Source of the DNA: a virus
Taxonomy: Duplodnaviria > Caudoviricetes
IMG/VR virus record: IMGVR_UViG_3300037722_000917
Location: 1 to 24,420 of that record
Strand: one strand, 5' to 3'
Length of the DNA stretch: 24,420 bases
A program made the position numbers and the translations under genes. Positions 4,158 to 21,907 of the stretch are shown here, in pieces; position 1 is the stretch's first letter; every line of letters begins with the position of its first letter. The notes under the pieces were generated by a model. The model was not told the DNA's origin, searched no databases, and worked only from the letters and a program-made list of their open reading frames with translations.

Positions 4158-4218
4158 CTTGGAGCCAATGCCGAAGCGTGAAACGCTCCACCTCACGAAC
4201 CAATGCGGCGGCTCCAAG
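4158..4218 (+). ncRNA. Structured non-coding element
   Basis: CTTGGAGCC/GGCTCCAAG perfect 9-bp stem, GCCG/CGGC continuation, inner AGCGT/ACGCT hairpin. Confidence 0.4.
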
Positions 4219-4224
4219 TCTTAC

Positions 4225-4297
4225 GGGGACGTAGCTCAGCTGGTAGAGCGGCAGGTCGAAGCCCTGCGCGCCGGAGGTTCGAGCCCTCCCGTCCCCA
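4225..4297 (+). tRNA. tRNA-Phe (anticodon GAA), atypical C33 and G37, CCA not encoded
   Basis: Acceptor GGGGACG/CGTCCCC + A73; D-arm GCTC-AGCTGGTA-GAGC; anticodon arm GCAGG-TCGAAGC-CCTGC; T-arm GGAGG-TTCGAGC-CCTCC. Confidence 0.92.
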
Positions 4298-4299
4298 CT

Positions 4300-4474
4300 T
4301 TGCAGCGGCTTCGTGTTGACCCATCGTCTCAACGGACCGTCCGGACAGCAGAGCCGGGTGGCGCTCAGAGGCAACGCCTCGTACCAGAGCTTCGCCCGAT
4401 CAGACTCGTGCACGGATTTCCGGAGCTGGCCAGCCGTGGATGGTTGAGATGGTGGTAGGCCGAAGCCGCTGCAA
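4300..4474 (+). ncRNA. 175-nt rod-like structured RNA, candidate 6S RNA homolog
   Basis: 14-bp perfect closing stem, 13-bp second stem with G-U pairs, central bubble, nested apical stems; GUGUUG/GGC internal loop and GUGGCGCUC motif. Confidence 0.6.
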
Positions 4475-5677: not shown

Positions 5678-5693
5678 GGAGTATCCAGCATGA
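5511..5693 (+). CDS. Small hypothetical protein (DUF4177-like)
   Basis: WKYV...LEDLSLQGYEILSV pattern; GGAG SD; ATGA coupling to the next gene. Confidence 0.5.
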   Translation: MDMLSRRITQWHWKYVTEATLVKTLEDLSLQGYEILSVQRTRRWLQACYLVVFSGREYPA

Positions 5694-5890
5694 AGCGCTT
5701 ACGCGTGACCGTCGAGCAGATCGTGGACGTGGATGATTCCGAGCATCCGATAGGCGTCGACGTCGACGCATTCCACGATTCGCTCGTAGACGATCTCCTC
5801 GATGCCCAGGGAGACCCTCATCCGACATCCGACACGAAGTTCGAATACATCCCTCGTGAGATCGTCTTCGTGAAGGTGGAGGCGGTATGA
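5690..5890 (+). CDS. Hypothetical acidic protein (66 aa)
   Basis: GGGAG SD, ATGA overlaps. Confidence 0.7.
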   Translation: MKRLRVTVEQIVDVDDSEHPIGVDVDAFHDSLVDDLLDAQGDPHPTSDTKFEYIPREIVFVKVEAV

Positions 5891-6102
5891 CGGAGAACCT
5901 CCTGCTGTCAGACGCTGAGCGAGAACGCTTCGCCGCTTACCTCGAACGGGACGCTGTCTCATCTGAAGGCATAGCAGAGCAGATGCAGAAGTTGGGTGGA
6001 CCGGTAATCGAACCACTTCGACAGCAGGTGCTCGCTGAAGCGGCGGCCTGCCGTATCATTGCGAAGAAGTTACGAAGCACGGAGTCCCAGCGGGTGAAGT
6101 GA
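5887..6102 (+). CDS. Hypothetical protein (71 aa)
   Basis: GGAGG SD, ATGA overlap. Confidence 0.7.
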   Translation: MTENLLLSDAERERFAAYLERDAVSSEGIAEQMQKLGGPVIEPLRQQVLAEAAACRIIAKKLRSTESQRVK

Positions 6103-6569
6103 TGGCTGACCAGATCCTCGAGAAGATTATCTCCGGTGGCCAGACCGGCGCCGACCGAGCTGCACTCGAAACCGCGAAGCAGCTCGGGCTTGCCACCGGC
6201 GGCACCGCTCCTCGAGGCTACAAGACGGAGTCCGGTGCTGATCTCAGCCTCGCTGGCTTCGGCCTCCGGGAGAGCTCTTCAGGATCCTACGCAGACCGCA
6301 CCTTCCAGAACGTTCACGAAGCCGACGCCACGATCTGGTTCGGGACAACCGACAGCCTCGGCTTCAAGTGCACGATGCGCGCCGTGAACACGTGGCGGAG
6401 GCTATGCCTCATCAACCCGACGGGACAGGAGCTTCGCTCCTGGCTCGAAGAACACCGCATCCGCATTCTCAACGTCGCCGGCAACCGTGCGTCTCACAAT
6501 CCGACGGTCTCCGAGCAAACGCGCAGCGTCCTGACAGCCGCGGTGAATGCCAAAAATGCGAAGAGCTGA
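6102..6569 (+). CDS. SLOG superfamily protein (circularly permuted YpsA / 'putative molybdenum carrier' family)
   Basis: KIISGGQTGADRAAL...GGTAPRG...RTFQNV.EADAT...LNVAGNR signature. Confidence 0.85.
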   Translation: MADQILEKIISGGQTGADRAALETAKQLGLATGGTAPRGYKTESGADLSLAGFGLRESSSGSYADRTFQNVHEADATIWFGTTDSLGFKCTMRAVNTWRRLCLINPTGQELRSWLEEHRIRILNVAGNRASHNPTVSEQTRSVLTAAVNAKNAKS

Positions 6570-6583
6570 CACGAACATGATCG

Positions 6584-6612
6584 TTGAAATCCACCTCGTG
6601 CTCAGTTATAAT
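6584..6612 (+). promoter_or_regulatory. Near-consensus sigma70 promoter
   Basis: TTGAAA (6584-6589), 17 bp spacer, TATAAT (6607-6612), intergenic. Confidence 0.8.
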
Positions 6613-6665
6613 GATCCTGTCAATCGGAGATCGGACACATCGTTGATTTGAAGGAGAGAGCCACC

Positions 6666-7016
6666 ATGTCGAACATCCTCGAACAGATCCGCGAACAGGT
6701 CAACAGCCTGTCCGCCGACCAGGTCCGGGAGCAGCTGCTCAAGCTCCAGGAGCAGAAGGCGAAGCAGAAGGAACGGGCCAAGGGCCGGCCGCACGGACCC
6801 ATGACCGACGAGCAGCGGGAGAAGCGCAAGCTATACAACCGCGAGCGCACGGCTCGTCCGGAAGTCAAGGCGAAGATGAAGGTCTACCATCAGAAGCCCG
6901 AGGTCAAGGAGCGGATGAAGGACTACCGCAAGAAGCGCGCGGCGAAGCAGAAGGCGATCCTCGCGCGGGCTGCGGAGCTCGGGATCAGCATCGAGCCGAC
7001 CCAGCCGTCGGCGTAA
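6666..7016 (+). CDS. Highly basic helical hypothetical protein (116 aa), likely nucleic-acid binding
   Basis: GAAGGAG SD; repeated PEVK..MK.Y unit; has its own promoter and terminator. Confidence 0.8.
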   Translation: MSNILEQIREQVNSLSADQVREQLLKLQEQKAKQKERAKGRPHGPMTDEQREKRKLYNRERTARPEVKAKMKVYHQKPEVKERMKDYRKKRAAKQKAILARAAELGISIEPTQPSA

Positions 7017-7032
7017 CATCTTCGTAGGAAGC

Positions 7033-7064
7033 GGAAAGGCGGCGCGTCAAGCCGCCTTTCCTTT
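7033..7064 (+). terminator. Rho-independent terminator-like hairpin
   Basis: GGAAAGGCGGC / GCCGCCTTTCC 11-bp stem, 7-nt loop, T-rich 3' side. Confidence 0.7.
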
Positions 7065-7102
7065 GGTGGGGATTCGGACGTTGACCTTCAAGAGGTTTCC
7101 AC

Positions 7103-7789
7103 ATGTCCAAGCGAGGTGCGGTAGTCCTTCTCTCGGGAGGGCTGGACTCCTCCACACTCCTGCATCAGGTCATCTACGAGGACTTCGCTCCACACGTCCT
7201 CATCGTGAATTATGGACAACGCCACACCCGTGAGATTCGGGCAGCGTACGAAGTCGCGAGGGCCGTCAGCGATCGTGCCGCGGTTGAGATCATCCAGGTG
7301 AACCTCGCCGACGCGATGATCCCGATCTTCGGCCTCGCCGCGAGCTCTCAAGTCGGGGCGAAGCAGGACGTGCCTCACGGCCACTACGCCGCGGAGAACA
7401 TGAAGACGACGATCGTCCCGAACCGCAACATGCTGCTACTGGCACTCGCTGGTTGCCACGCCGTCGCGATCGGGGTCGACACCGTCGCGTACGCAGCACA
7501 TGCCGGAGACCACGCGATCTATCCGGATTGCCGTCCCGTCTTCGTCGCTGACATGAACGCGGCGCTGAGCTCGGCGACGGACGGAGCGATCCGGCTCCAC
7601 GCACCCTTCCTCACGATCACGAAGACTGACATCGTCAATCGAGGTAAGCAACTGGGGGTTCCCTTCGGGTTGACCTACTCATGTTACGAAGGTCGGGAGA
7701 TCCACTGCGGGCTCTGTGGGACGTGCGTCGAACGTAAGGAAGCGTTTCGGGACTCCGGAGTCCCTGACCCCACGGTCTACGCTGCATGA
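7103..7789 (+). CDS. queC: 7-cyano-7-deazaguanine synthase QueC
   Basis: SGGLDS PP-loop, YGQRH, VPNRN, YPDCR, TYSCY..G...HCGLCGTCVER zinc site. Confidence 0.96.
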   Translation: MSKRGAVVLLSGGLDSSTLLHQVIYEDFAPHVLIVNYGQRHTREIRAAYEVARAVSDRAAVEIIQVNLADAMIPIFGLAASSQVGAKQDVPHGHYAAENMKTTIVPNRNMLLLALAGCHAVAIGVDTVAYAAHAGDHAIYPDCRPVFVADMNAALSSATDGAIRLHAPFLTITKTDIVNRGKQLGVPFGLTYSCYEGREIHCGLCGTCVERKEAFRDSGVPDPTVYAA

Positions 7790-7977
7790 AGACGTCCACC
7801 GTCCACATCGTCGTTCAGGAATTTACACTCGGTGCGATGATCGAGTCCGTGTGGACGACGCGGAGACAAGCACAGGCGGCGATCCGTCACTACAAGGAAG
7901 AAGGACGGAACGTTCGTCCACCGATACGATACCGGATCGTTTCTCGTGTCGTTGACGCCTTGGTGAAACCATCATGA
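7786..7977 (+). CDS. Hypothetical protein (63 aa)
   Basis: ATGA overlaps on both sides. Confidence 0.6.
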   Translation: MKTSTVHIVVQEFTLGAMIESVWTTRRQAQAAIRHYKEEGRNVRPPIRYRIVSRVVDALVKPS

Positions 7978-8162
7978 TGTTCCGCATGCGCTTCAAGCAG
8001 CTCGGTGGACACATCCACGTCCGCGTCTTCGAGTCGTCAAACGGGGTGACCTGGGCGAAGAACGGAGAACTCGTCTTCGACGAACAGAGCTGGCCGGCCT
8101 GGCGATCGAAGATGGACTCCCTTCGGATCACCGTCCTTCCTGAAGAGGAACCCACGACGTGA
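7974..8162 (+). CDS. Hypothetical protein (62 aa)
   Basis: ATGA/GTGA overlaps. Confidence 0.65.
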   Translation: MMFRMRFKQLGGHIHVRVFESSNGVTWAKNGELVFDEQSWPAWRSKMDSLRITVLPEEEPTT

Positions 8163-8872
8163 CCACGAAGATCACGTGGTGGGAGTTCTCTGACCTCATC
8201 GATCACCTGATGAGCCGTCCGGACATCTGGTTACAGTCCGACGAGAACGAGCATCTCTGGTTGCTAACCACCGCGTCCGAGCGGAGCGCGCTGGGCCTCC
8301 TCTTCTCTCCTCCGTCCGACACGGTCCACCCATACCGGATGTACACCGTCCAAGCCATCGGCATGGAATGGGCTGACGAGCACGTGGAGAAGTACGTCCA
8401 CTGGCTGCTTCACCACTGGACATCGTACAACCGACGTCTCGGCGTGGAACAGTTCCTAATCCAGGAACTGAACATCGATCCAGAGACCGCAGTCCCGAGC
8501 GCTATCGCCCTCGAAGCTCTCGACTGGACACAGGGCAAGGTTCCCGAACCCCTCGAGCCCGAGATCCAAGAGCACCTCTGGCCGAAGACGGAAGTCAACA
8601 TCTCTCCAACCTCACCCGACCCGTTCCACATCGGCACGTTCCTGTTCAACGGGGGAGCCGGCTGGGTGAAACTCCGTCTCGTCTCCGGGATGATCCGCAC
8701 TCTACTCTCAATCCGCGCGAAGACCGGTGAAACCGTCCTCCTCGAAGGTTTCACCCGTCCGACGCACGGCCGGCTCTACGACACCGCAGCGCAGCTCGGA
8801 GGTTGGACTCCGGGCGTTGAGAAGCACGACGCCGCTGCATTGCAACCACAACTGGAAGAGGACGCGAGTTAG
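8159..8872 (+). CDS. Hypothetical protein (237 aa)
   Basis: GAGGA SD, GTGA overlap, long ORF in the dominant orientation; no family recognised. Confidence 0.7.
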   Translation: MTTKITWWEFSDLIDHLMSRPDIWLQSDENEHLWLLTTASERSALGLLFSPPSDTVHPYRMYTVQAIGMEWADEHVEKYVHWLLHHWTSYNRRLGVEQFLIQELNIDPETAVPSAIALEALDWTQGKVPEPLEPEIQEHLWPKTEVNISPTSPDPFHIGTFLFNGGAGWVKLRLVSGMIRTLLSIRAKTGETVLLEGFTRPTHGRLYDTAAQLGGWTPGVEKHDAAALQPQLEEDAS

Positions 8873-8951
8873 GCTTCGAGGGATCCTCCCTGGAAGCAGG
8901 AACAATCGAGTTCAGCGGCTTCGTGGTTAGGCGACTTAATCAGGTGAACCG

Positions 8952-9998
8952 ATGACAATCACCGAAGAAATCAAGCACGCTCTGCTGCCGTACGTCCAAG
9001 ACGGGATCATCACGCCTGAGTTCGAAGGACTCATCCAGCAGGCGGTGCTTGCGGGCAAGGCGCCGGAGTTCCGGATACTCCGTCCGATCGTCCTGAATCA
9101 ATCCTCCTACAAGGACTTCCAGAACTGTCAACGCCTCTTCGCGTGGAAACGGGTCGAGGGACTCGAGCCTGTCGGGCGACGCTCGGCGTTGGAGATCGGC
9201 ACGGCCACGCACACCGGCCTCGCCGTGTTCCACAGCACGCGGGACCCTGACCTCGCGCTGGAAGCCGCACGCAAGAAGCTCGAGGAGAGGGCAGGACCTT
9301 CGACCCGCTTCGAAGATAAGGATCTCGACGAAGCCCAAGCCATCGTCGATTCAATCCTGCCTGCGTACATCGCACACTACTCGAAGACGGAAGAAATCTG
9401 GACCCCGCTCAATCAGGAGATCGAGTTCCTCGTTGAGGTCGGGGATCGGACGAACGTCCACCTGCGGGGCAAGTCCGACAACCTCTCCACAGCGAAAGGC
9501 GGGCTCTATCTCGTCGACTACAAGACTGCGGGTCGCATGGATCCCCGGGACCTGCTGAAGTACGACCTCGAAGTTCAGCTCTCGGCCTACATCTACGGTC
9601 TCACCAAACACCTGACACAGGAATCCTTGAAGCAAGGCGGAGAGCCCGTCGTCATCCGCGGTGCGATCATCGACGTCCTCGTCAAGACGAAAGTCCCACA
9701 GTTCGCACGCGAACTCTTCACGCGCTCCGTCGCAGAGCTGCAAGAGTTCGAGACGGAGTTCGTTGAAGTCGGTTCCCGAATCCGGGCACAGCTGGCTCGC
9801 GTCGCGGCCGGAGAGTCCATGAGGAAGGTCTTTCCGAAGAACACCGAGCACTGCTTCCGCTACGGCACGTGTCCGTTCCGAGACCTCTGCCTGAAAGACA
9901 CCCCCGTCCGCCGCGCTTTGTACAACAAGCGAGACCCGGACTACGTCGACGAGGCACAGGCCGATCTCGACACGGCCTTCAAGGAAGGACGAGTGTGA
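8952..9998 (+). CDS. PD-(D/E)XK / Cas4-like (RecB-family) exonuclease
   Basis: SSYKDFQNCQR, GTATH, RGKSD, LVDYKT, QLSAY and C-terminal C..C..C cluster. Confidence 0.88.
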   Translation: MTITEEIKHALLPYVQDGIITPEFEGLIQQAVLAGKAPEFRILRPIVLNQSSYKDFQNCQRLFAWKRVEGLEPVGRRSALEIGTATHTGLAVFHSTRDPDLALEAARKKLEERAGPSTRFEDKDLDEAQAIVDSILPAYIAHYSKTEEIWTPLNQEIEFLVEVGDRTNVHLRGKSDNLSTAKGGLYLVDYKTAGRMDPRDLLKYDLEVQLSAYIYGLTKHLTQESLKQGGEPVVIRGAIIDVLVKTKVPQFARELFTRSVAELQEFETEFVEVGSRIRAQLARVAAGESMRKVFPKNTEHCFRYGTCPFRDLCLKDTPVRRALYNKRDPDYVDEAQADLDTAFKEGRV

Positions 9999-10111
9999 TC
10001 ACGTGGATCATCCACCGACTCCTCCGCGTCTTCCGCCGATTTACCTTCCGGCGTGGTGGTACCCACCAACGCATGTCTCGGAGATGGCTCTCCGATCACG
10101 AGGAGGATTGA
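9995..10111 (+). CDS. Small basic hypothetical peptide (38 aa)
   Basis: GTGA overlap with the nuclease and TGATG overlap with the next gene. Confidence 0.45.
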   Translation: MITWIIHRLLRVFRRFTFRRGGTHQRMSRRWLSDHEED

Positions 10112-10344
10112 TGGATATCAACCTCGACACGGACGATCTCATTGTCGGAGACCGCGTCTCACGATCGTGGATGGACGAACGACGAACCGGCACCATCGCA
10201 GAGGTCTACCGAGGGGCCCCTCCCGCTATTGGCCTCGGAATCCGGATGTTCGCAATCACCTGGGATGATACCCGTCGTACGGAACGTGGATATCTCCGTC
10301 CCAGTCTCACGAAGCTCGTAACCGCAGACAGGAGGACCGAATGA
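10111..10344 (+). CDS. Small SH3-barrel-like hypothetical protein
   Basis: GAGGAGG SD; VGDRV...GTI.EV...ITWDD pattern. Confidence 0.65.
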   Translation: MDINLDTDDLIVGDRVSRSWMDERRTGTIAEVYRGAPPAIGLGIRMFAITWDDTRRTERGYLRPSLTKLVTADRRTE

Positions 10345-10526
10345 ACAGAGTGGAGCTGGCAGCTGAAGTCGGAGAGTTCATCAAGACGTCTATCGCCGAC
10401 AATGACGAAGACGAGGTGGACCTCGCCGAAGCCGCGACGCAGGTCGAAGACTTCATCGAGGGTCTCGAAGACGCTGAAGACGAGGCTGAAGGCGAAGCCG
10501 AGGCCGAAGGAGGAACCGAGGAGTGA
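10341..10526 (+). CDS. Very acidic small protein (possible DNA mimic)
   Basis: AGGAGG SD; 24 D/E versus 2 K/R in 61 aa. Confidence 0.7.
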   Translation: MNRVELAAEVGEFIKTSIADNDEDEVDLAEAATQVEDFIEGLEDAEDEAEGEAEAEGGTEE

Positions 10527-11356
10527 GCACGCCAAGCAAGACCCTGCCGAAGCTTCAGCGGACAGACCAGCTGAAAGCAACCTTCGGCACGGTGCTAGGC
10601 TACGGGCCTGCTGGCGCGGGGAAGACCCGGTCGATCAAGAGTTTGAAGGCCGCCGGGTTCAACCCCGTCGTCATCGCCTGTGAGCTGGGAGAGACCCACG
10701 GTCTCCTCTCGCTGGCGAGCGAGGAGATTCCGTACATCGTCGTGCGTACACACGCGGAGACCATCGACGTGATCCGGGAGATGAAGAAGAAGCCCGGACG
10801 GATCGAGTACGAGCAGACGGAATTCGGAGCCGCCGTCCTCGACTCAATCACACAGTGGGGAGAATTCCCGCTGGAGCGCTACGTCGAGCTGAAGGGATGG
10901 GACGACCTCCACGGAGTAACCGTCAAGGGCTCGGGAAAGGATCCTCGAACAGCATACGGATACCTCTCGGAGAAGGGGCGTCAGTTGTACAAGGAGCTCT
11001 TCGAGCTTCACGGACACCTCTACGTCATCGCCCGGGAAGGCCTCTTCGGAGGGTCGGACGAAGTCCCTCCCTTCGCGGCGCCAGAGCTCCCCGGACAGAA
11101 ACTTCCTCGAGAGATTCCAGGGTGGCCGGATGCGACAGTCCGCCTCCGCGTCATCGCAGGGCAGCATCGAATGGTCACGAAGGGCGAGGGAGGATCTCCT
11201 GCGCGGGTCCGCCTTCCGGAGCACTTCAAGCCTCTCCCCCTTCGGTGCAACCCTGACATTTCCGCACTCATCCGGTACATGTGCGGGGATCAGAGTGTGT
11301 ATTCACTCCTCGATCCGAAGGATCCGGCAAACGCACCAGAGACAGGCAGAACGTAA
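10523..11356 (+). CDS. AAA_24 / Sak4-like ssDNA-annealing ATPase
   Basis: Walker A GPAGAGKT, Walker B VLDSIT; lies between the exonuclease and the SSB. Confidence 0.8.
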   Translation: MSTPSKTLPKLQRTDQLKATFGTVLGYGPAGAGKTRSIKSLKAAGFNPVVIACELGETHGLLSLASEEIPYIVVRTHAETIDVIREMKKKPGRIEYEQTEFGAAVLDSITQWGEFPLERYVELKGWDDLHGVTVKGSGKDPRTAYGYLSEKGRQLYKELFELHGHLYVIAREGLFGGSDEVPPFAAPELPGQKLPREIPGWPDATVRLRVIAGQHRMVTKGEGGSPARVRLPEHFKPLPLRCNPDISALIRYMCGDQSVYSLLDPKDPANAPETGRT

Positions 11357-12448: not shown

Positions 12449-12799
12449 ATGGACACGAAGTATCAGCTTCCTGGCGGGACGACCCGGTCTGAGAGGTCTC
12501 CGCTTCATCACCTCGTCCCGCCTAGCGGGCCGCGCCGGATCGCTCAGCGGTTCACCCTCGGTGCGGATACGCATGGAGTAGACAACTGGAAGAAGTCTCT
12601 CGGATCCGAAGGCGATGCAGCAGCGTTCTGTCAGTCGGCTTACGACCACATGATGGAGCACATGCTCAAGATGGTTGCTTTGCAGGACCCTGAAGACGAT
12701 CACCTCGGAGCCATTGGGTGGGCCGTCTGCACGCTCGCCCACGTCGAGTCCCTCTACGGGAAGAAGTGGACGGAGCTGCGTCCGGAGGCTACCACATGA
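12449..12799 (+). CDS. DUF5664 dATP/dGTP diphosphohydrolase-like protein
   Basis: HLVPP...GADTHGVDNWKK...HMMEH...DDHLGAIGW pattern; AGGAGG SD. Confidence 0.75.
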   Translation: MDTKYQLPGGTTRSERSPLHHLVPPSGPRRIAQRFTLGADTHGVDNWKKSLGSEGDAAAFCQSAYDHMMEHMLKMVALQDPEDDHLGAIGWAVCTLAHVESLYGKKWTELRPEATT

Positions 12800-13173
12800 G
12801 CCGGGCCTGGATCGGAGTCGACCTCGACGGGACGCTCGCCGAGTACACTACGTGGCACGGAGTAGAACACATCGGTGCTCCAATCCCTGCGATGGTCACT
12901 CGCGTGAAGCGTTGGCTGGCTGAAGGTAAGGAAGTCCGGATCTTCACCGCTCGCGTCTCAGGTCGTCGCGGCAACGCCGACACCCCACAGACGGAGATCG
13001 AGGAGTCGACCCGGATCATCCAGGACTGGTGTGAAGCGCACATCGGCGTGCGCCTGACCGTCACGGCAACGAAGGACTTCGGGATGACCGTCCTCTACGA
13101 CGACCGTTGCATCTGCGTGGAGAAGAACACGGGCCGACTCCTGACGCCTCAATACGCACTGGAGAACCTATGA
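12796..13173 (+). CDS. HAD-superfamily phosphatase (capless)
   Basis: DLDGTL motif I, FTAR motif II, K motif III, YDDR motif IV. Confidence 0.88.
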   Translation: MSRAWIGVDLDGTLAEYTTWHGVEHIGAPIPAMVTRVKRWLAEGKEVRIFTARVSGRRGNADTPQTEIEESTRIIQDWCEAHIGVRLTVTATKDFGMTVLYDDRCICVEKNTGRLLTPQYALENL

Positions 13174-13595
13174 GCATGCTCACTGCGACGCACACGGTCT
13201 CTCTCGGGCACCGGCTCCCGTCGTATGACGGTGTCTGCTCCAGTCCACACGGACACAACGCTCGGTTCTCCATTGACGTGTGGACGGAGTCCTTCTACGA
13301 CTTCAAAACGCTGGCGAACGTCCTCCGGGACATTCTGGCCGACTTCGATCATGCGATGATCCTCCACGCAGACGATCCGTTCCTCGTCTACCTCGCGAAG
13401 CAGGGCTTCCGATACGTTGCTATGAACGTGGAGCCCACGACCGAAGCGATGACGCAGCTCGTCTTCAACGCGGCGGAGCTGTTCGTGAACGATCTGCCAG
13501 ACCGTCGTGTTTCGAAGGTTACGATGTTCGAGACGGACCGATACTCTGCCTCTATCGGCACGAGCAATTCTCTCGTGTGGCGGGTCACCCCATGA
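13170..13595 (+). CDS. queD: 6-carboxy-5,6,7,8-tetrahydropterin synthase QueD
   Basis: GHRL...CSSPHGHN, DFK, FDH, PTTE, ET motifs. Confidence 0.92.
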   Translation: MSMLTATHTVSLGHRLPSYDGVCSSPHGHNARFSIDVWTESFYDFKTLANVLRDILADFDHAMILHADDPFLVYLAKQGFRYVAMNVEPTTEAMTQLVFNAAELFVNDLPDRRVSKVTMFETDRYSASIGTSNSLVWRVTP

Positions 13596-13861
13596 CCGAC
13601 GAAATTGATCATCCGAAGCATTACAACTCGCATCCCTCCGGGATCGAGTGTATCACGGTCGCCGAGCACCACAACTTCAACATCGGCAACGTGCTGAAGT
13701 ACATCTGGCGGGCCGGGATGAAGGCTCCGGTCCGGCCCGTCGGTCCTGGTGATGTGCTTGATGTCAAGTCCTGGACTCGTGCCACGCTCACCGACTTGAA
13801 GAAGGCGAGATGGTATCTGGACCGAGAAATCCAGAGACTGGAGAAGGAGGAGGCCTTTTGA
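13592..13861 (+). CDS. DUF3310 protein (T7 gp1.7-like nucleotide kinase domain)
   Basis: IDHPKHY...IECI...FNIGNVLKYIWRAGMK...DLKKARWYL. Confidence 0.9.
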   Translation: MTDEIDHPKHYNSHPSGIECITVAEHHNFNIGNVLKYIWRAGMKAPVRPVGPGDVLDVKSWTRATLTDLKKARWYLDREIQRLEKEEAF

Positions 13862-14229
13862 CTTTCCAGGAAGTCGTTCACAAGTGGGCAATCCTCTGCT
13901 TCGGACTGGAGATCGCGAAGGATCCCATCGAACGTTCCCACCGCTTCCTCGAAGAGTCCCTCGAACTCGTTCAGGTCCTGGGGTGTCGAGAGGACGAAGC
14001 AATTGCACTTGTGAAATACGTCTACTCCCGACAGAAGGGTAGCATCGGGCAGGAGGTCGGAGGGGTCATGGTCACACTCGGGGCACTCTGTGCGGCCATC
14101 GGTTGGGATATGGAATATTGTGGAAGCAAGGAGCTTGAGCGGATCCTCGATCCGGAGGTCCTGGACAAGATCCGACAGAAGAACCTCACGAAGATCAAGC
14201 GCTCACCTCTTCCTGGAAGGACGACATGA
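13858..14229 (+). CDS. MazG-like all-alpha NTP pyrophosphohydrolase
   Basis: RFLEESLELVQ and QEVGGV acidic helices; GGAGG SD, TTGA overlap. Confidence 0.65.
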   Translation: MTFQEVVHKWAILCFGLEIAKDPIERSHRFLEESLELVQVLGCREDEAIALVKYVYSRQKGSIGQEVGGVMVTLGALCAAIGWDMEYCGSKELERILDPEVLDKIRQKNLTKIKRSPLPGRTT

Positions 14230-15562: not shown

Positions 15563-15834
15563 GTACCGCTCCAACGACCCTCTCCGTGAAGCGACGCTTC
15601 GAGCCGATCGGTCACAGTGAGTGGGAGAGGGAACCCTTCGACGTTCTCGTCTGGCATTATGACGGGGAGTCCTACTTGACTCATCCCGTGCAGTGTCCAG
15701 ACGGATACTTCCCCGGCCTCCTCCGAACGTTCATGAACGGGGAACCCTGTGACCTGAGAACATTTGACGAAGGACTCGGCCGAGAGAAGCTCGGGATCAC
15801 CCGTGCTGACATCCTGAAGGAGGTCCTCCGATGA
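15559..15834 (+). CDS. Hypothetical protein (91 aa)
   Basis: ATGA overlaps on both sides. Confidence 0.65.
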   Translation: MSTAPTTLSVKRRFEPIGHSEWEREPFDVLVWHYDGESYLTHPVQCPDGYFPGLLRTFMNGEPCDLRTFDEGLGREKLGITRADILKEVLR

Positions 15835-16469
15835 TCTATCCCATCGCCGAGAAGTTCAAGAGCCCTCAGGGTGAGGGACTCTACACCGGTGTGCCCATGG
15901 CCTTCATCCGGTTCATCGGATGTTCTGTCGGGCAGAAGATCTGCACGGCCTGTGACACAGACTTCGATCAGGTCTACGAGAAGCTTGGCGGAGGACGCTT
16001 CTCCGTCGAAGACCTCGCAGAGTGGGCAGGGGATTACATCCACGTCTGCCTGACTGGAGGTGAGCCTCTTGACCGGCAACTCCTGCCGTTGATCAACCAT
16101 CTACAAGATCGGCACGGGAAGATCATCCACGTGGAAACCTCTGGAACCATCTTCCCAAGCTGGCTGCGGGAGGTCTACCGAAAGCATTTCTGGCTCTGCG
16201 TCTCTCCGAAGCCGGGCTACCTGCAAGACATGATCTCGACCGCCGACGAGATCAAGGTGATTCTCGGAGGACTCGGTGCCGGCCCAGGCTGGCCCTCTCT
16301 CGAAGACGCCGTTCGGTGGGCGGATGAAGGGAAGCTGGTCTACCTCCAACCTCGGAACGAGAAGTTCCTGATCGATCGATCCGCTCTGCAGGAAGTCATC
16401 GAGACGGCGCATCAGCATCCACGTCTCCGGATCTCCGTGCAAATGCACAAGTTCATGGAAGTGCGATGA
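15831..16469 (+). CDS. queE: 7-carboxy-7-deazaguanine synthase QueE (radical SAM)
   Basis: EKFKSPQGEG, FIRFIGC-x6-C-x2-CDT, TGGEP, ETSG, VSPK, SVQMHK. Confidence 0.95.
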   Translation: MIYPIAEKFKSPQGEGLYTGVPMAFIRFIGCSVGQKICTACDTDFDQVYEKLGGGRFSVEDLAEWAGDYIHVCLTGGEPLDRQLLPLINHLQDRHGKIIHVETSGTIFPSWLREVYRKHFWLCVSPKPGYLQDMISTADEIKVILGGLGAGPGWPSLEDAVRWADEGKLVYLQPRNEKFLIDRSALQEVIETAHQHPRLRISVQMHKFMEVR

Positions 16470-16690
16470 GAGGAAATCTCTCGCTCGACAGGAAACGTGG
16501 GCGCTGGAAATCCACCGTCCGACAACGTGTCGCCTGGCTACTTGCGCATCGAGACCTTTGGAAGAAGGACAAGCGAACAATCGTCGAGGCAATGCGTGAA
16601 GCAGGACTCGTAGCACGAACGACATACTGGAAAGACGTTCACGTTGAAGCACTCTTCCGTCTTGCAGGAGATATCCTCCCTCATGACTAG
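16466..16690 (+). CDS. Hypothetical basic protein (74 aa)
   Basis: ATGA overlap with queE. Confidence 0.6.
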   Translation: MRGNLSLDRKRGRWKSTVRQRVAWLLAHRDLWKKDKRTIVEAMREAGLVARTTYWKDVHVEALFRLAGDILPHD

Positions 16691-16895
16691 GATCCCTCCG
16701 CCGACAGGTCATAACCCAGAGCGCACGAAGCTGATCAAACACATGCTCTCCGAGCTCGAGGCTCCAAGCAAGGAGCTGACGGGATGGGAAGACCGATTCC
16801 TCGAATCCATCACCACACAGTGGGACGAGCGTCACTGGCTCTCAGACGATCAGTTCCGGACGCTCGAACGTATCTACACGGAGAAAACCGCATGA
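16683..16895 (+). CDS. Hypothetical protein (70 aa)
   Basis: AGGAG SD; LTGWEDRFLESI...LSDDQ..LERIY pattern; ATGA overlap with hpt. Confidence 0.7.
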   Translation: MTRIPPPTGHNPERTKLIKHMLSELEAPSKELTGWEDRFLESITTQWDERHWLSDDQFRTLERIYTEKTA

Positions 16896-17392
16896 GCTTC
16901 TCGACGGTTCTCTTTGACCAGTATCAGATCGCGGACCGCGTCCGAGAGCTGTCCTATGAACTTGACAAAGTCCCGATCTCACACGTCGTCGTGGTGATGA
17001 ACGGAGCTCTGCACTTCGCGTCACAGCTCCTGCTGCAGCTCCGTCGAGACGTCTCCGTCAGCCTAATCCAGGTGCGCACATACGTTGGGAAGTCCCCAGT
17101 CAATCCTCCGAAGGCCATTGACCAGATTGGTCTCCGAGACCTTTCCGGACACGACGTTCTCGTGATCGAGGACATTGTCGATACCGGGGCAACCATCAAG
17201 TACTTGCGAAAGCAACTGCTCCACAGCGGAGCCCGCACCGTCCGAACCATCTCCTTGCTCCAACGGCGTGGAAGCGCAGAGCAAGCGAACCACATCGGAT
17301 TCCTCCTCGAAGACAACGCCTTTGTAGTCGGCTATGGCCTCGACCTCGACGGTAAATACCGTCACTACCCTTTCATTGGAGTGCTCTCATGA
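16892..17392 (+). CDS. hpt: Hypoxanthine/guanine phosphoribosyltransferase family protein
   Basis: VLVIEDIVDTGAT PRPP-binding loop; FVVGYGLD..GKYR C-terminal motif. Confidence 0.92.
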   Translation: MSFSTVLFDQYQIADRVRELSYELDKVPISHVVVVMNGALHFASQLLLQLRRDVSVSLIQVRTYVGKSPVNPPKAIDQIGLRDLSGHDVLVIEDIVDTGATIKYLRKQLLHSGARTVRTISLLQRRGSAEQANHIGFLLEDNAFVVGYGLDLDGKYRHYPFIGVLS

Positions 17393-17931
17393 ACCAGAAG
17401 ATGATGGAGAAGGGAGTGGAACTCCTACTCCGAGGAATGGGAGTGGATCCCTCCGACCCGAACTTCGAGGGGACGCCGGGCCGCGTCGCCCGGATGTTCA
17501 AAGAGATGTTGACACCGGAGGCCAACAACTGGTCCACCTTCCCAGCGAAGGCCAGCGATCTGATTATCCTCCGCGGTCACAAGGTCGTCGCAGTGTGTCC
17601 ACACCATCTGCAGCCCGTCGAAATCCGATGTGCCATCGGCTACATCCCACACAAGGAGACGCTCGGTCTCTCCAAGCTGGCAAGGGTCGTCGAAGAGCAA
17701 CTGACCATCCCGATCATGCAGGAGGACCTTGCTGAGGCTGTCGCCACTGCCCTTCAGCAGAAGATCGATCCGAAGGGCGTCGGGGTCGTCCTCGCCGGAG
17801 TGCACGGCTGCATGCGCTACCGCGGGATCCGGTCCTCCGGTGACGTCATCACCTCCGTGATGAAGGGAGTCCTCCTTCTCAACCCGGCCGCCCGATCCGA
17901 ATTCCTTCAACTCATCGGAAGTCCTGCGTAG
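17389..17931 (+). CDS. folE: GTP cyclohydrolase I FolE
   Basis: TPGRVA, CPHHL, GLSKLAR, MQE, HGCM..RG. Confidence 0.96.
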   Translation: MNQKMMEKGVELLLRGMGVDPSDPNFEGTPGRVARMFKEMLTPEANNWSTFPAKASDLIILRGHKVVAVCPHHLQPVEIRCAIGYIPHKETLGLSKLARVVEEQLTIPIMQEDLAEAVATALQQKIDPKGVGVVLAGVHGCMRYRGIRSSGDVITSVMKGVLLLNPAARSEFLQLIGSPA

Positions 17932-17939
17932 GAGGACCT

Positions 17940-18233
17940 ATGTCGATTCTCGCGGAGATTCGAGCAGTCACTGCTTCGCTGAACGTCGCTGAGGACGTCC
18001 GCAGGCAGCTGTCTAGGACGTTCGATCCGAGGGACCTCCTTTTCGAAGCGCTCAAGGCGGCTGCCCTCTCGTGGAAGGAGGATCCTTTCATTCAGAAACT
18101 TCTGCAGAAGGAGTATCCTCCGAACGTCATCCTGGTCCCAAAGCACGTGTCCCCAGACCACTACGTGATTCAAGGTGCTTGCTTCGACATGATCATCTAC
18201 GACGAAGTCGTTGAGCCGTCGAATGAAGATTGA
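17940..18233 (+). CDS. Hypothetical protein (97 aa)
   Basis: AGGAGG SD; fills the folE-polymerase gap. Confidence 0.65.
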   Translation: MSILAEIRAVTASLNVAEDVRRQLSRTFDPRDLLFEALKAAALSWKEDPFIQKLLQKEYPPNVILVPKHVSPDHYVIQGACFDMIIYDEVVEPSNED

Positions 18234-20796
18234 TCTCAAGCTCGTCGAACCCACCGACGACAATCCATTCGGTAAACCCGAGCACTGTCGGAACTGCACC
18301 CTCTTCTCGGAGCCAGGTCCCGTCTTCGGGGACGGGAATCGAGCCGCCCGAATCTTCTACCTCGGCGAAGGCCCCGGGGCGGACGAAGTCGACTGGTCTC
18401 CTTCCTACGACCCCGAACGCCACGGCCCTCCTCGTGCAAACATGCGGATCGAACTTCCGAAGTGGCGGGACGATGGGAAACCTCCCAGCACGACCGTATC
18501 GTTTCGCCAGCACCGGATGAAACCGTTCGTAGGCGGGTCAGGACGAATCCGGAACGCCCTGCTCAAGCATGCGAGCCTGGACAAGGATGTCCACCTCTTC
18601 ACCTCGAACTGTGTGAAGTGTAGGCCTCCAGCGAATCGCCTTCCCACTCAACACGAAGTGGCCTGCTGCGCTCCCTTCCTCATTCAGGAACTGGAAGATG
18701 TCAACCCGAACCTCATCATCGCGGCGGGTGAGCTCGCGCTCTCAACCGTCACCGGAAAGTCGAAGATCGGGCTCTGGCGGGGAGTCCCCACCCTCGGCGC
18801 CTTCGGGAAGAAGGTCTTCCCCACCTGGCACCCAGCCAACGTCATGCGGGTTCAGTGGAACTGGCCCTTCGCCGTCCACGACCTGGCGCGCGCGAAAGTT
18901 GAGAGCACGTTCCCGGAGATCCGTCGGATACCGGTCAACATTGACCGACGTGCAAGTCTTGCAGATACTCGAAGCACTCTGCTTGCAGATATCCGAGCAC
19001 GGGGAGCCTGCACGTTCGACTTCGAGACGACTGGTCTCACCCCGGACCGTGATTCGATTCGCATGTGCGGATTTGTCGGGCGGCCAGATCAGGCTAACGT
19101 GTACGATTGGACCTCTGGTGCTCAGCAGCTCTTTCAGGAGATATTTGACGATCCTACAGTCGAAATCTGCGGTCAGAACATCCTCTACTTCGACCTCCCC
19201 TTCGCGGAGGAGAAAGGGCATCGGGTAAGGTGGGAGGAACGCATCTTCGATACGATGGTGGCGTTCCACCTGGCCAACAGCTCTTATGGTCAGACCTCCA
19301 TCGGTGCGCAGAACGCAGGGAACTACCAAGGCGCTCGCGGCACGGAGAAGGACCTCTCCTTCATCGCTTCGAATCATACAGACATCGAGTATTGGAAGTC
19401 GAAGGAACAGTACAAGAACGACCTCTACGGCGTCTGTGGCGTAGACGTCATTGCAACGGATCGATCCGCGTACCACCCTGTTCACGGGCTGAAAGCCGAA
19501 CTGGCCTCATACGACATGCTCGATCTGTACTACAAGCATGTGCTGCCGGTTCACCTCCCCCTCCGCAGGATGACGCAACGCGGAGTGAAGATTGACGAAG
19601 ACCGGGCAGCCCGTTGGGCCATGATGCTGGAGTCGAATGCAAACCAGCTCGAGTCCACGCTGAAGGAGGGTCTCGGGTACGACTTCAACATGAACAGCCC
19701 GCAGCAGTTGATGGATCTGCTCTACAACAAGCTGGGCTTACCCGTCCAATACATTCACGACAAGAAGCGAGGGAAACGGCCCACAGCAAACGCCGAAGCG
19801 ATTGAGATCCTCGCGAACCTGGCTCCAGAGAACAAGATCCTCGGGACGATCGTTGACATCCGTCACCTGCGGAAGATGAATTCGACATACGTCCAGCCGG
19901 GCCTCGTGACCGGATACCTCCACCCTCGCTTCGGCGTGAGCAAAGCTGCCAACGGCCGATTCAACGGTCAGGACCCGAACGCACAGAACGTGCCGGAGAT
20001 CATGCGGGATATCTGGATCCCGGATTCACCCGAGCACGTGCTGCTCTCCGCTGACAGCTCGCAGATTGAATGGCGTGTCGCCATGGTCCTGTCCGGAGAT
20101 CCGGTCGGCCTCGAACTCCTCGCGAGTGGAGTGGACAACCACCGTGCAGTCGCAGCGGAGACCCTTGGGAAACGGATCGAAGACATTTCCGATGCCGAAC
20201 GCCACGCGTCGAAGTTCATCGTCTACGGACTCGGCTACGGACGAGGGGCTGCCAGCATCGCGGCAGGCCACAACCTCGACCTCTCGTTCGTGGACCAGTT
20301 CATCAGCAGGTTCTTTGCCCGGTTCAAGGTCTTCCACGCGTGGCGCGAAGCGTTGCCTGAACAAGTCCGACGTGATCACTTCCTGGCGAATCCCTTCAAA
20401 CGCCGTAGGTGGTGGTACACCCGAGAGATTACGGAAATCTACAACTTCCCTGCCTCCAGCACCGCTGCTGACATGATGTACGAGGAGATCATCCAACTCG
20501 AACGGCAGTTGCCGAAGGACGCGACTCTGCGCTTGACGGTTCACGACGAAGTCGTTCTCAACGTCCCGAAGGACATCGTCCGGGAAACCATCAACTGCGT
20601 ACGAAGCATCATGCAGGCGAAATGGGAGCTGATCGTCAATGCGAGTGCTCGCCCGGAGAACGTGCGTAGGCACTATCCCGACGGTTGGTTCTGTCCAGCA
20701 GACGTCCATGTCGGCACGAACTGGAAGATGTGCAAGTCGAAAGACCCACAGGACAAGGTTGATCGAGCGAAGCTCGAGAAGGAGCTGGGACTCTAA
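18223..20796 (+). CDS. polA: Family A DNA polymerase with N-terminal family-4 uracil-DNA glycosylase domain and 3'-5' exonuclease
   Basis: UDG: CRNC, GEGPG, PFVG, NCVKCRPP, HPA; Exo: DFETTG, QNILYFD; Pol: ADSSQIEWR, KFIVYGLGYG, VHDE. Confidence 0.95.
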   Translation: MKIDLKLVEPTDDNPFGKPEHCRNCTLFSEPGPVFGDGNRAARIFYLGEGPGADEVDWSPSYDPERHGPPRANMRIELPKWRDDGKPPSTTVSFRQHRMKPFVGGSGRIRNALLKHASLDKDVHLFTSNCVKCRPPANRLPTQHEVACCAPFLIQELEDVNPNLIIAAGELALSTVTGKSKIGLWRGVPTLGAFGKKVFPTWHPANVMRVQWNWPFAVHDLARAKVESTFPEIRRIPVNIDRRASLADTRSTLLADIRARGACTFDFETTGLTPDRDSIRMCGFVGRPDQANVYDWTSGAQQLFQEIFDDPTVEICGQNILYFDLPFAEEKGHRVRWEERIFDTMVAFHLANSSYGQTSIGAQNAGNYQGARGTEKDLSFIASNHTDIEYWKSKEQYKNDLYGVCGVDVIATDRSAYHPVHGLKAELASYDMLDLYYKHVLPVHLPLRRMTQRGVKIDEDRAARWAMMLESNANQLESTLKEGLGYDFNMNSPQQLMDLLYNKLGLPVQYIHDKKRGKRPTANAEAIEILANLAPENKILGTIVDIRHLRKMNSTYVQPGLVTGYLHPRFGVSKAANGRFNGQDPNAQNVPEIMRDIWIPDSPEHVLLSADSSQIEWRVAMVLSGDPVGLELLASGVDNHRAVAAETLGKRIEDISDAERHASKFIVYGLGYGRGAASIAAGHNLDLSFVDQFISRFFARFKVFHAWREALPEQVRRDHFLANPFKRRRWWYTREITEIYNFPASSTAADMMYEEIIQLERQLPKDATLRLTVHDEVVLNVPKDIVRETINCVRSIMQAKWELIVNASARPENVRRHYPDGWFCPADVHVGTNWKMCKSKDPQDKVDRAKLEKELGL

Positions 20797-21166: not shown

Positions 21167-21907
21167 ATGATCCGACTCTCCATGGAAATCCCGACACATT
21201 GGCTGAGGGTTTGGACGTCCAGGACGGACCTGGACTTCGTCCTTGCGCACAGGGTCCTTGAGGACGGTACGTACGCAGAGTTCCACGCGAACCGGGAGAA
21301 GGGGCGTGAGCTCATCCTGGACAACTCCATGCACGAGCTGGGACATCCCCTGCCGGTTAAGGACATCATCCACGCTGCGCGAGCGGTCAAGGCGAACTAT
21401 GTCATCCCGCCAGACAAGCTGGGATACCCCGACTTCAACCTTGACCAGTTCTGGTCGATGGTCTCCTCAGTCAGAGGAGAGTTCCCTCTGGCTCCCGTGG
21501 TGTGCGGACACACGCAGGCCGAGCGTCTCTCCTTCATCGAAGAAGTCTCCGAACATGCAAGCATGATCTGCTTGCCATACCGAGAAGCCCGCTTCGACTG
21601 GTATCAGGAACTGTCCGAGGCCTTCTCGAACTGGGACCGGATCCACCTCCTCGGCGTGAACACGCTCGGCGAACTCCACTCCTTCGCCATGATCTCCGAA
21701 TGCGATCCGGCCCGTCCTCGGCGCTGGTCCGTCGACACTGCCAAGGCAATCAAGTGGGGTGTCGAGATGCGGGGCATCGACGATGGAGACAGTCTTCGAC
21801 ACGCCTCCCTCTCGTCTAAAGACCTGCTGGATCTCCGAGAGCTGAACCCCGCCCAGCTGATGTACGTCAACCACAACATCGAGATTCTCCGCTTGACCTG
21901 CGCATGA
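21167..21907 (+). CDS. dpdA: TGT/DpdA-like TIM-barrel protein (putative DNA 7-deazaguanine transglycosylase)
   Basis: ILDNS, VIPPD, VVCG, IHLLG and SVDT occur in the order of TGT-fold active-site motifs; co-located with queCDE/folE. Confidence 0.65.
   Translation: MIRLSMEIPTHWLRVWTSRTDLDFVLAHRVLEDGTYAEFHANREKGRELILDNSMHELGHPLPVKDIIHAARAVKANYVIPPDKLGYPDFNLDQFWSMVSSVRGEFPLAPVVCGHTQAERLSFIEEVSEHASMICLPYREARFDWYQELSEAFSNWDRIHLLGVNTLGELHSFAMISECDPARPRRWSVDTAKAIKWGVEMRGIDDGDSLRHASLSSKDLLDLRELNPAQLMYVNHNIEILRLTCA

Follow-up and report, generated by a model that had tools for sequence, protein, structure and literature searches.

The gene for an Hpt-family purine phosphoribosyltransferase (PRTase) between queE and folE of this phage is real and recurrent; it is an optional accessory to a known DNA-modification system, and guanine salvage is its most likely role. 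We consider it probable that the enzyme acts on guanine displaced by a DpdA3-type transglycosylase, not on preQ0, and that it returns GTP to FolE as an optional helper. Published phage dpd pathways stop at the base swap, and the fate of the removed guanine is absent from the texts searched. The repeated recruitment of a PRTase from two families, and its fusion to FolE in cultured phages, suggest an accessory step that has been overlooked.

Gene content of the window

The window, that is the whole 24,420-base stretch analysed here, is a phage replication region whose plus strand carries every identified gene; thyX and a primase-like gene accompany the UDG-PolA polymerase and the other features of Table 1. 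The sequence-only reading had placed hpt two small ORFs after queE and in ATGA overlap with folE, and the coordinates confirm this arrangement. Indeed, ATGA overlaps occur at both ends of hpt, with the upstream ORF and with folE, and GGAG precedes the ATG of this intact gene. The queD start was likewise set by an ATGA overlap with the ORF upstream. The two small ORFs between queE and hpt had no match in loci L002-L009. Neither GMP reductase nor nucleoside tailoring genes were found among the scanned ORFs of the fragment.

Table 1. Features of the window relevant to purine salvage and DNA modification
Feature	Position	Strand	Evidence
queC, preQ0 synthase	7103..7789	+	PF06508 E=5e-54; TIGR00364 above cut-off
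dATP/dGTP diphosphohydrolase N-terminal family protein	12449..12799	+	PF18909 E=8e-6, 26.2 bits (cut-off 27 bits)
queD, CPH4 synthase	13170..13595	+	PF01242 E=3e-16; CxxxHGH motif
queE, CDG synthase (radical SAM)	15831..16469	+	phrog_2076; TIGR04508 E=2e-21, below cut-off
Two small ORFs between queE and hpt (16466-16690; second ends 16895)	16466..16895	+	no Pfam/PHROG match
hpt, Hpt-family 6-oxopurine phosphoribosyltransferase, 166 aa	16892..17392	+	PF00156, TIGR01203, PDB matches, fold model
folE, GTP cyclohydrolase I, first preQ0-synthesis step	17389..17931	+	PF01227 E=8e-40; CPHH and CMRYRG motifs
DNA polymerase A with N-terminal uracil-DNA-glycosylase-like domain	18223..20796	+	PF00476, PF03167
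DpdA3-type guanine transglycosylase, 246 aa TIM barrel, between polymerase and primase genes	21167..21907	+	homology and fold

A role of the PF18909 protein in the deazaguanine pathway is uncertain. A small HAD-like phosphatase ORF (12796-13173; weak PHROG and TIGR01662 matches) is coupled between its gene and queD. The ORF at 13810-14229 strongly matches two PHROG families without an assigned function; judged by eye it resembles MazG-type NTP pyrophosphatases, for which it gave no library match, and relatives carry other MazG-like ORFs, also judged by eye, in the matching region. The uracil-DNA-glycosylase-like domain fused to PolA spans 18223-18860, and this polymerase is conserved throughout the clade, directly upstream of dpdA3 in most relatives. 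A tRNA-like gene is suggested at ~4250-4330 by the translation and sequence context (ORF translations around 4159-4458).

A DpdA3-type transglycosylase and the predicted modification

The DpdA-type gene, which the sequence-only reading had left unlocated, was found downstream of the polymerase gene. Its ORF has tblastn matches to CP220 CPT_0056 and to the annotated DpdA of immuto_2-6A, and no Pfam or NCBIfam match. A profile of nine clade members finds the proteins of immuto_2-6A (E=3e-24), CP220 (2e-21) and phiST (CGPG_00065, 3e-6), and has no match in the VpKK5 record. DpdA (7UI4) is the top fold match of the model, and TGTs come next. Moreover, D52, D83, G114 and D190 are invariant in 18 sequences, and these columns presumably map to TGT catalytic residues. 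Three features by which a DpdA3 system is recognised are present, namely homology to the defining proteins, a TGT fold with predicted catalytic Asp and the genes folE, queD and queE (with queC).

The accessible text of PMC10516641 reports that G is wholly replaced in three DpdA3 phages, phiST, CP220 and immuto_2-6A; it proposes post-replicative insertion, and describes a failed DpdA3 reconstitution in E. coli and the presence of ADG nucleoside in the infected cytoplasm. Since FolE, QueD, QueE and QueC are encoded here and QueF was not found among the ORFs scanned in the 24,420-base fragment, the predicted base is preQ0. The DNA base of this phage would then be dPreQ0 and, by analogy with the three characterised DpdA3 phages, substitution may be near-complete.

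Two other ways of recognising these enzymes were tried. The Pfam DpdA family (PF23859) reached its cut-off in 0 of 50 records, known dpdA phages included, and is therefore useless for this comparison. Net charge and a Zn motif were rejected as DpdA3 discriminators, as they gave no separation from classic phage DpdA.

A DpdA3-like gene was also seen in a bacterial genome, within a Streptomyces row (L255:5792-10346) of queD-queE-folE-dpdA3-like gene followed by nucleoside-phosphorylase-like and thymidylate-kinase-like ORFs and a methyltransferase; none of the genes scanned there is an obvious phage gene.

An Hpt-family enzyme with an altered purine pocket

The hpt product matches PF00156 (E=1e-16) and TIGR01203 (E=1e-30); its 106.5 bits against the latter lie below the 150-bit equivalog cut-off, and the protein is therefore filed as an Hpt-family variant, not as an equivalog. 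Bacterial HGPRTs are its best PDB sequence matches, its AF2 model (pLDDT 90.7) reaches TM 0.82-0.90 to HGPRT structures, and both Pfam and the model indicate a type I PRTase fold with an Hpt-type hood. With bacterial Hpt (TIGR01203; 1R3U, 3H83, 6D9Q) it shares the fold (TM up to 0.90), the PRPP loop, the loop II Tyr, the loop IV FVVGYGLD and Arg157, whereas it differs in an Arg for Lys, a 3-residue deletion, the sub-cut-off score and its coupling to folE in a phage.

The motifs previously read from the sequence (EDIVDTG, FVVGYGLD, MNG, TY and LLQR) are all found in the protein. The PRPP loop is intact (E93, D94, D97, T98, G99, T101), G38, Y64 (loop II), F144, D151 and R157 are kept, and among the residues that never vary in 104 aligned relatives are G38, Y64, D94, D97, D151 and R157. 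The claim that several motifs are unusual stood in part. Arg125 does replace the conserved purine-contacting Lys (human Lys165), which is Lys in 117 of 119 database relatives and Arg in 2, and a 3-residue deletion relative to bacterial HGPRT follows it. T63 of the TY motif is also rare (2/119), and occurs in 1 of the 45 linked viral enzymes described below. MNG, in contrast, is ordinary, since M36 is found in 21/119 and N37 in 27/119 database relatives. Judged from the alignments, the MNG and TY changes appear unremarkable and carry no signal.

In human HGPRT, Asp137 is the base that deprotonates N7. Table 2 of PMC2228302 gives Asp137 at 3.6 A from N7 and Lys165 in contact with O6 and N7, which agrees with the earlier statement that the altered Lys contacts purine O6.

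Close homologues of the protein were not found: the best database matches have 33-43% identity, the 17 matches in cultured-phage records are all below 36%, and single-protein scans returned one weak viral locus and two metagenome loci at 34%, the one checked of these two having no que match. In a tree of the fragment protein with 80 viral and 47 of the 119 database sequences, Arg-bearing proteins fall in several places; as the branch of the fragment protein is long and weakly supported, an independent origin of its Arg is only suggested. This long branch, an identity of at most 43% to any relative, the score below the equivalog cut-off, the lack of hpt in relatives of the phage and a GC3 of 0.69 vs 0.72-0.78 in ten longer core genes might indicate a recently acquired, decaying or non-catalytic passenger. 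However, the ORF is intact, coupled at both ends and has kept the invariant residues, and the same placement recurs in unrelated phages, so that we regard a passenger as highly improbable.

Recurrent linkage of PRTase genes to folE and que genes

Viral contigs were scanned with an Hpt alignment over 28 of the 64 parts of the collection; 178 loci were confirmed, and the best 80 were used, with up to 10 kb tested on each side. A match to folE, queC, queD, queE or dpdA lies near 45 of these best 80 loci; folE itself is near 36 of them, and within 150 bp in 19. At 50% identity the 80 proteins form 29 clusters, the largest holding 29 of them, and the 17 clusters that have a linked member are spread over the tree between cellular-type sequences. 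As a rough control, taken from a different collection, 405 of 50,697 cultured-phage records have FolE, and the linkage of hpt to folE and que genes is far above background. The co-occurrence with que and dpdA genes to which the sequence-only reading had pointed is thus a real one.

A second PRTase family behaves similarly: from 146 viral Gpt-like loci the best 80 were used, and 52 of these are linked. Two of the three characterised DpdA3 phages, immuto_2-6A and phiST, have a Gpt-like PRTase, which GenBank annotations already name; that of phiST lies ~17 kb from its que cluster. Phage immuto_2-6A resembles the fragment in its DpdA3 family gene, folE/queD/queE, PolA and the order queE, two ORFs, PRTase, folE. 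Its PRTase differs, being a 131-aa Gpt-like protein that keeps Asp and Lys and aligns to the fragment Hpt only at the PRPP loop, and immuto_2-6A further encodes QueF, DpdN and a kinase, all missing from the fragment. Elsewhere the gene order is RNR-dNMP kinase-folE-PRTase (MaInes) or gpt-queE (MIJ3).

FolE itself has a Gpt-like domain fused to its N-terminus in VpKK5, MMDA13 and a Stenotrophomonas phage, where its gene lies beside classic dpdA. Matches to this domain come mostly (34/39) from Vibrio, Pseudomonas, Stenotrophomonas, Variovorax, Xanthomonas and Sphingomonas phages, in genes annotated, where annotated, as GTP cyclohydrolase. Like the fragment, these phages tie a PRTase that keeps its Asp to FolE in a que-dpdA operon; unlike it, they use a short Gpt-like domain without loop II, fused and paired with classic DpdA. 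Such a fusion indicates that the partner of the PRTase is FolE, a GTP consumer. Taken together, the use of PRTases from two families, Hpt and Gpt, and the FolE fusions point to a coupling of the PRTase to the deazaguanine pathway, as far as gene arrangement can suggest it.

At three loci of cultured dpdA phages, FolE is ~300 aa long and its N-terminal Gpt-like PRTase domain is unannotated and has an intact PRPP loop (L115:6998-7900, L116:5754-6647, L118:6989-7876). Similar matches were seen in the Pseudomonas phages NP1, Quinobequin-P09, JG012 and PaMx25.

Transglycosylases were sought in 49 Hpt-bearing viral records, a subset of the 80 made up mainly of longer contigs, most of them fragments. 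Hpt accompanies several types of the enzyme: 10 records have a DpdA3-like gene, 3 a longer DpdA-like one (394-407 aa) and 4 one of the VpKK5 type. A "DpdA2-like" label for the 394-407 aa proteins, guessed from size and motif, was dropped. Among 8 near-complete Hpt-bearing records, 6 show DpdA3, QueD or FolE. The other 2 have no DpdA3-like, QueD or FolE match, and Hpt is therefore possible in phages without a deazaguanine pathway.

These last records bear on a broader role, in which Hpt is a general purine-salvage auxiliary that supplies more GTP for FolE from any guanine or hypoxanthine, released by host nucleic-acid breakdown or taken up, with no tie to DpdA3. The active-site evidence for it is identical to that for guanine recycling, folE itself is the tightest link, and que and dpd matches are missing from the fetched stretch at 35 of the best 80 viral Hpt loci, although some unlinked loci, at contig ends, may be host DNA. 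Against it stand the repeated adjacency and fusion to FolE within dpdA operons and the recruitment from both PRTase families, and we consider this general role unlikely.

hpt is optional among close relatives

All or part of the pol-dpdA3 arrangement, mostly with queE and folE, was found at 30 related loci, and an Hpt or Gpt match at none of the 30 in the fetched stretches. Over whole records PF00156 was matched in 1 of 30 relatives (1 of 9 at ≥90% completeness), by a 293-aa protein of a different type whose gene is distant from the cluster, and CP220 has no PF00156 match. All five near-complete relatives have QueC; none of the five has a ribonucleotide reductase (RNR) or, in a search run without a positive control, an Hpt-profile match. 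Of 21 relatives searched, none gave an AAA_28 kinase match and 10 carry the PF18909 family. Thus, hpt is an optional helper and no required step of the pathway.

Which base: comparison with deazapurine-cluster PRTases

The sequence-only reading had also proposed that the PRTase converts preQ0 to its nucleotide. A more general form of this idea is that it ribosylates preQ0 (or CDG), and that the ribotide, once phosphorylated and reduced, is built into DNA by the phage polymerase. There is chemical precedent: in the accessible part of PMC6112128, TubE ribosylates CDG with PRPP in vitro and does not accept 7-deazaguanine. Two primer patterns did not locate TubE in GTDB genomes (some loci being judged by titles), so homologues were picked by cluster content instead. 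In 401 Streptomyces genomes, QueE and then a cluster-borne PRTase were searched for (22 matches), and 16 further loci were taken. Five of them could be typed by Pfam content. The toyocamycin-type loci L278 and L280 contain FolE, GMP reductase, adenylosuccinate synthetase, a lyase or HAD and the PRTase, and the tubercidin-type loci L282, L286 and L289 contain FolE, the PRTase, UbiD and GMP reductase or Nudix; of the other 11 only L283 was partly annotated. These gene contents agree with the lists in the accessible text of bioRxiv 10.64898/2026.04.15.718813.

All 16 Streptomyces cluster PRTases, which are not independent since a single protein of this kind served as query for all of them, have Gly at the column of the N7-contacting Asp and Asn at the Lys column, with Arg preceding this Asn in 14/16. 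The signature is derived here from the 16 homologues and not from a paper. Both Asp and Lys are retained in a Gpt-like protein that Streptomyces encodes away from clusters of this kind. Loss of the Asp would be favoured by a 7-substituted base without N7-H, and the Asp-to-Gly/Lys-to-Asn signature could offer a simple sequence test to tell deazaguanine from guanine-salvage PRTases.

The TubE/ToyH-type enzymes resemble the fragment Hpt in their type I PRTase fold (profile match 97%) within a folE/queD/queE cluster. The homologues, chosen for the same cluster content and not the named sequences, differ in belonging to the Gpt branch and in having Gly and Asn in place of the N7 Asp and the Lys, respectively; their clusters hold GMP reductase and tailoring enzymes and, where annotated, no transglycosylase. 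In contrast, the N7-contacting Asp is retained in the fragment Hpt (Asp97), in all the best 80 viral Hpt and in 78/79 viral Gpt-like proteins; the single exception resembles the Streptomyces type, and one more locus was unplaceable. At the Lys column the fragment has Gln124-Arg125, and neither the ToyH/TubE-type Gly nor the Asn. This supports the earlier argument that the retained Asp favours guanine. As the ToyH/TubE-type enzymes form a Gpt-like branch, an enzyme of the Hpt branch might nevertheless take a 7-substituted base by another route.

Arg125 counts to some degree against guanine as the substrate. It is rare in the database (2/119) and common in que-linked viral Hpt of the best 80 (31/45, 28 of them in one cluster, vs 8/35 unlinked), so that the base pocket has changed. 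In phage Gpt-like proteins the Lys column holds Lys, Asn or Arg, and Arg is present in 12/27 of those without a nearby que gene. With Arg occurring with and without que genes nearby and a loose Lys column, we read Arg125 as a recurrent phage variant, not as the ToyH/TubE change. Two narrower interpretations were rejected. Arg as a marker of DpdA3 partners fails on the Hpt records with a DpdA3-like gene, where Arg is found in 4/10 and Lys kept in 6/10. Arg125 as half of the ToyH/TubE signature fails since the Streptomyces Arg lies one position earlier, with Asn in the Lys column.

Ribosylation of preQ0 could thus appeal to the TubE precedent, to a pocket altered near O6/N7 by Arg125, and to two gene rows, that of MaInes and that of a complete 97-kb virus record (L093, G035; 5678-10953) which reads queD-dpdA3-dNK/AAA_28 kinase-queC-queE-folE-hpt(Arg)-NTP pyrophosphohydrolase. 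Nevertheless, the 16/16 signature is missing from the fragment Hpt, relatives with que genes and dpdA3 lack Hpt in the fetched stretches, as does CP220 any PRTase match, and the near-complete relatives have no RNR. Moreover, the fragment already has a transglycosylase with conserved TGT-like catalytic Asp positions, and Arg is frequent away from que genes while Lys persists beside DpdA3-like ones. The preQ0 proposal is therefore disfavoured, and we judge such a route very unlikely.

Some Streptomyces clusters are of neither the toyocamycin nor the tubercidin type. L251, L252 and L253 (genomes G179, G243 and G220) have queC-queD-queE-folE with an Asp-to-Gly PRTase and glycosyltransferases, and also a formylglycine-enzyme-like ORF (by eye), a 5'-3' exonuclease, a reverse-transcriptase-like ORF and an HTH-peptide deformylase.

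Probable guanine recycling and the timing of substitution

In the guanine recycling that we favour, GTP would be converted to preQ0 by FolE, QueD, QueE and QueC, and DpdA3 would exchange preQ0 for guanine; Hpt would then combine the freed guanine with PRPP to give GMP, which host kinases would return as GTP to the neighbouring FolE. Full substitution at 59% GC would amount to ~30,000-36,000 exchanges per genome copy of 50-60 kb (a length assumed from relatives). As every exchange uses up one GTP and sets one guanine free, salvage would lower the extra purine expense. It would spare de novo purine synthesis, and would remove guanine, a likely competitor of preQ0 at the transglycosylase. Guanine as the Hpt substrate, the purine flux and the benefit to the phage are predictions of this scheme; that most hosts have their own Hpt or Gpt counts against it. 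A closed loop of this kind was the second proposal of the sequence-only reading, and it is now better supported in that the linkage recurs, whereas the closure of the loop stays conjectural and hpt proved optional.

The literature searches returned no paper on a link between PRTases and que or dpd genes; Iyer 2013 (PMC3763556) and Crippen 2019 could mention one. The term "phosphoribosyl" is absent from the main texts of PMC10516641, PMC6884629, PMC10484667 and PMC5699537; in the supplement of PMC10516641 it appears only as a PRA-PH match, and the immuto_2-6A PRTase is undiscussed there. In the accessible text of PMC7824862, PRTases come up only in connection with NAD and Ter systems.

The recycling scheme holds whether DpdA3 acts on DNA or on free nucleotides. 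The locus also bears on, without settling, how DpdA3 phages achieve complete substitution. It is conceivable that DpdA3 swaps preQ0 into a free dG nucleotide before replication, that the PF18909 enzyme lowers dGTP and that the polymerase incorporates the product, Hpt merely salvaging guanine. This is compatible with guanine recycling as regards the PRTase, and differs on the timing of substitution. The full substitution of DpdA3 phages and the ADG nucleoside in infected cytoplasm, both from the accessible text of PMC10516641, are in keeping with it, as are the P-loop kinase genes that flank dpdA3 in CP220, immuto_2-6A, L093 and L123, the NTP pyrophosphatases nearby, and PF18909 in the fragment and 10/21 relatives. 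In the opposite direction, an AAA_28-type kinase is absent in 21/21 clade relatives, PF18909 was not found in 11/21, the same paper proposes post-replicative insertion, and the charge and Zn-motif comparisons fail to set DpdA3 apart from classic phage DpdA. We consider this exchange in the nucleotide pool unlikely. It keeps some probability, since substitution is complete in the characterised DpdA3 phages, kinases lie beside dpdA3 elsewhere, PF18909 is present here, and a modified dGTP was proposed before: a pre-replicative route, which the sequence-only reading had called undescribed, was already put forward for Campylobacter phages, as cited in the accessible text of PMC6884629.

A wider version can be formulated, in which full G replacement as such is a matter of the nucleotide pool. 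The preQ0 deoxynucleotide would then exist ahead of replication. DpdA3 could form it from a free dG nucleotide while Hpt clears guanine and the PF18909 enzyme drains dGTP or, less likely, it could arise through ribosylation of preQ0 by an Arg-type Hpt; PolA would read and write a G-free alphabet. We hold this to be rather unlikely, and the L093 row is the best candidate locus for such a route.

In a large aquatic clade (L195-L197), folE-hpt(Arg) lies beside PolB, and the 394-407 aa DpdA-like protein is encoded far from the que genes, beside a glycosyltransferase-like gene for which a further base modification is possible.
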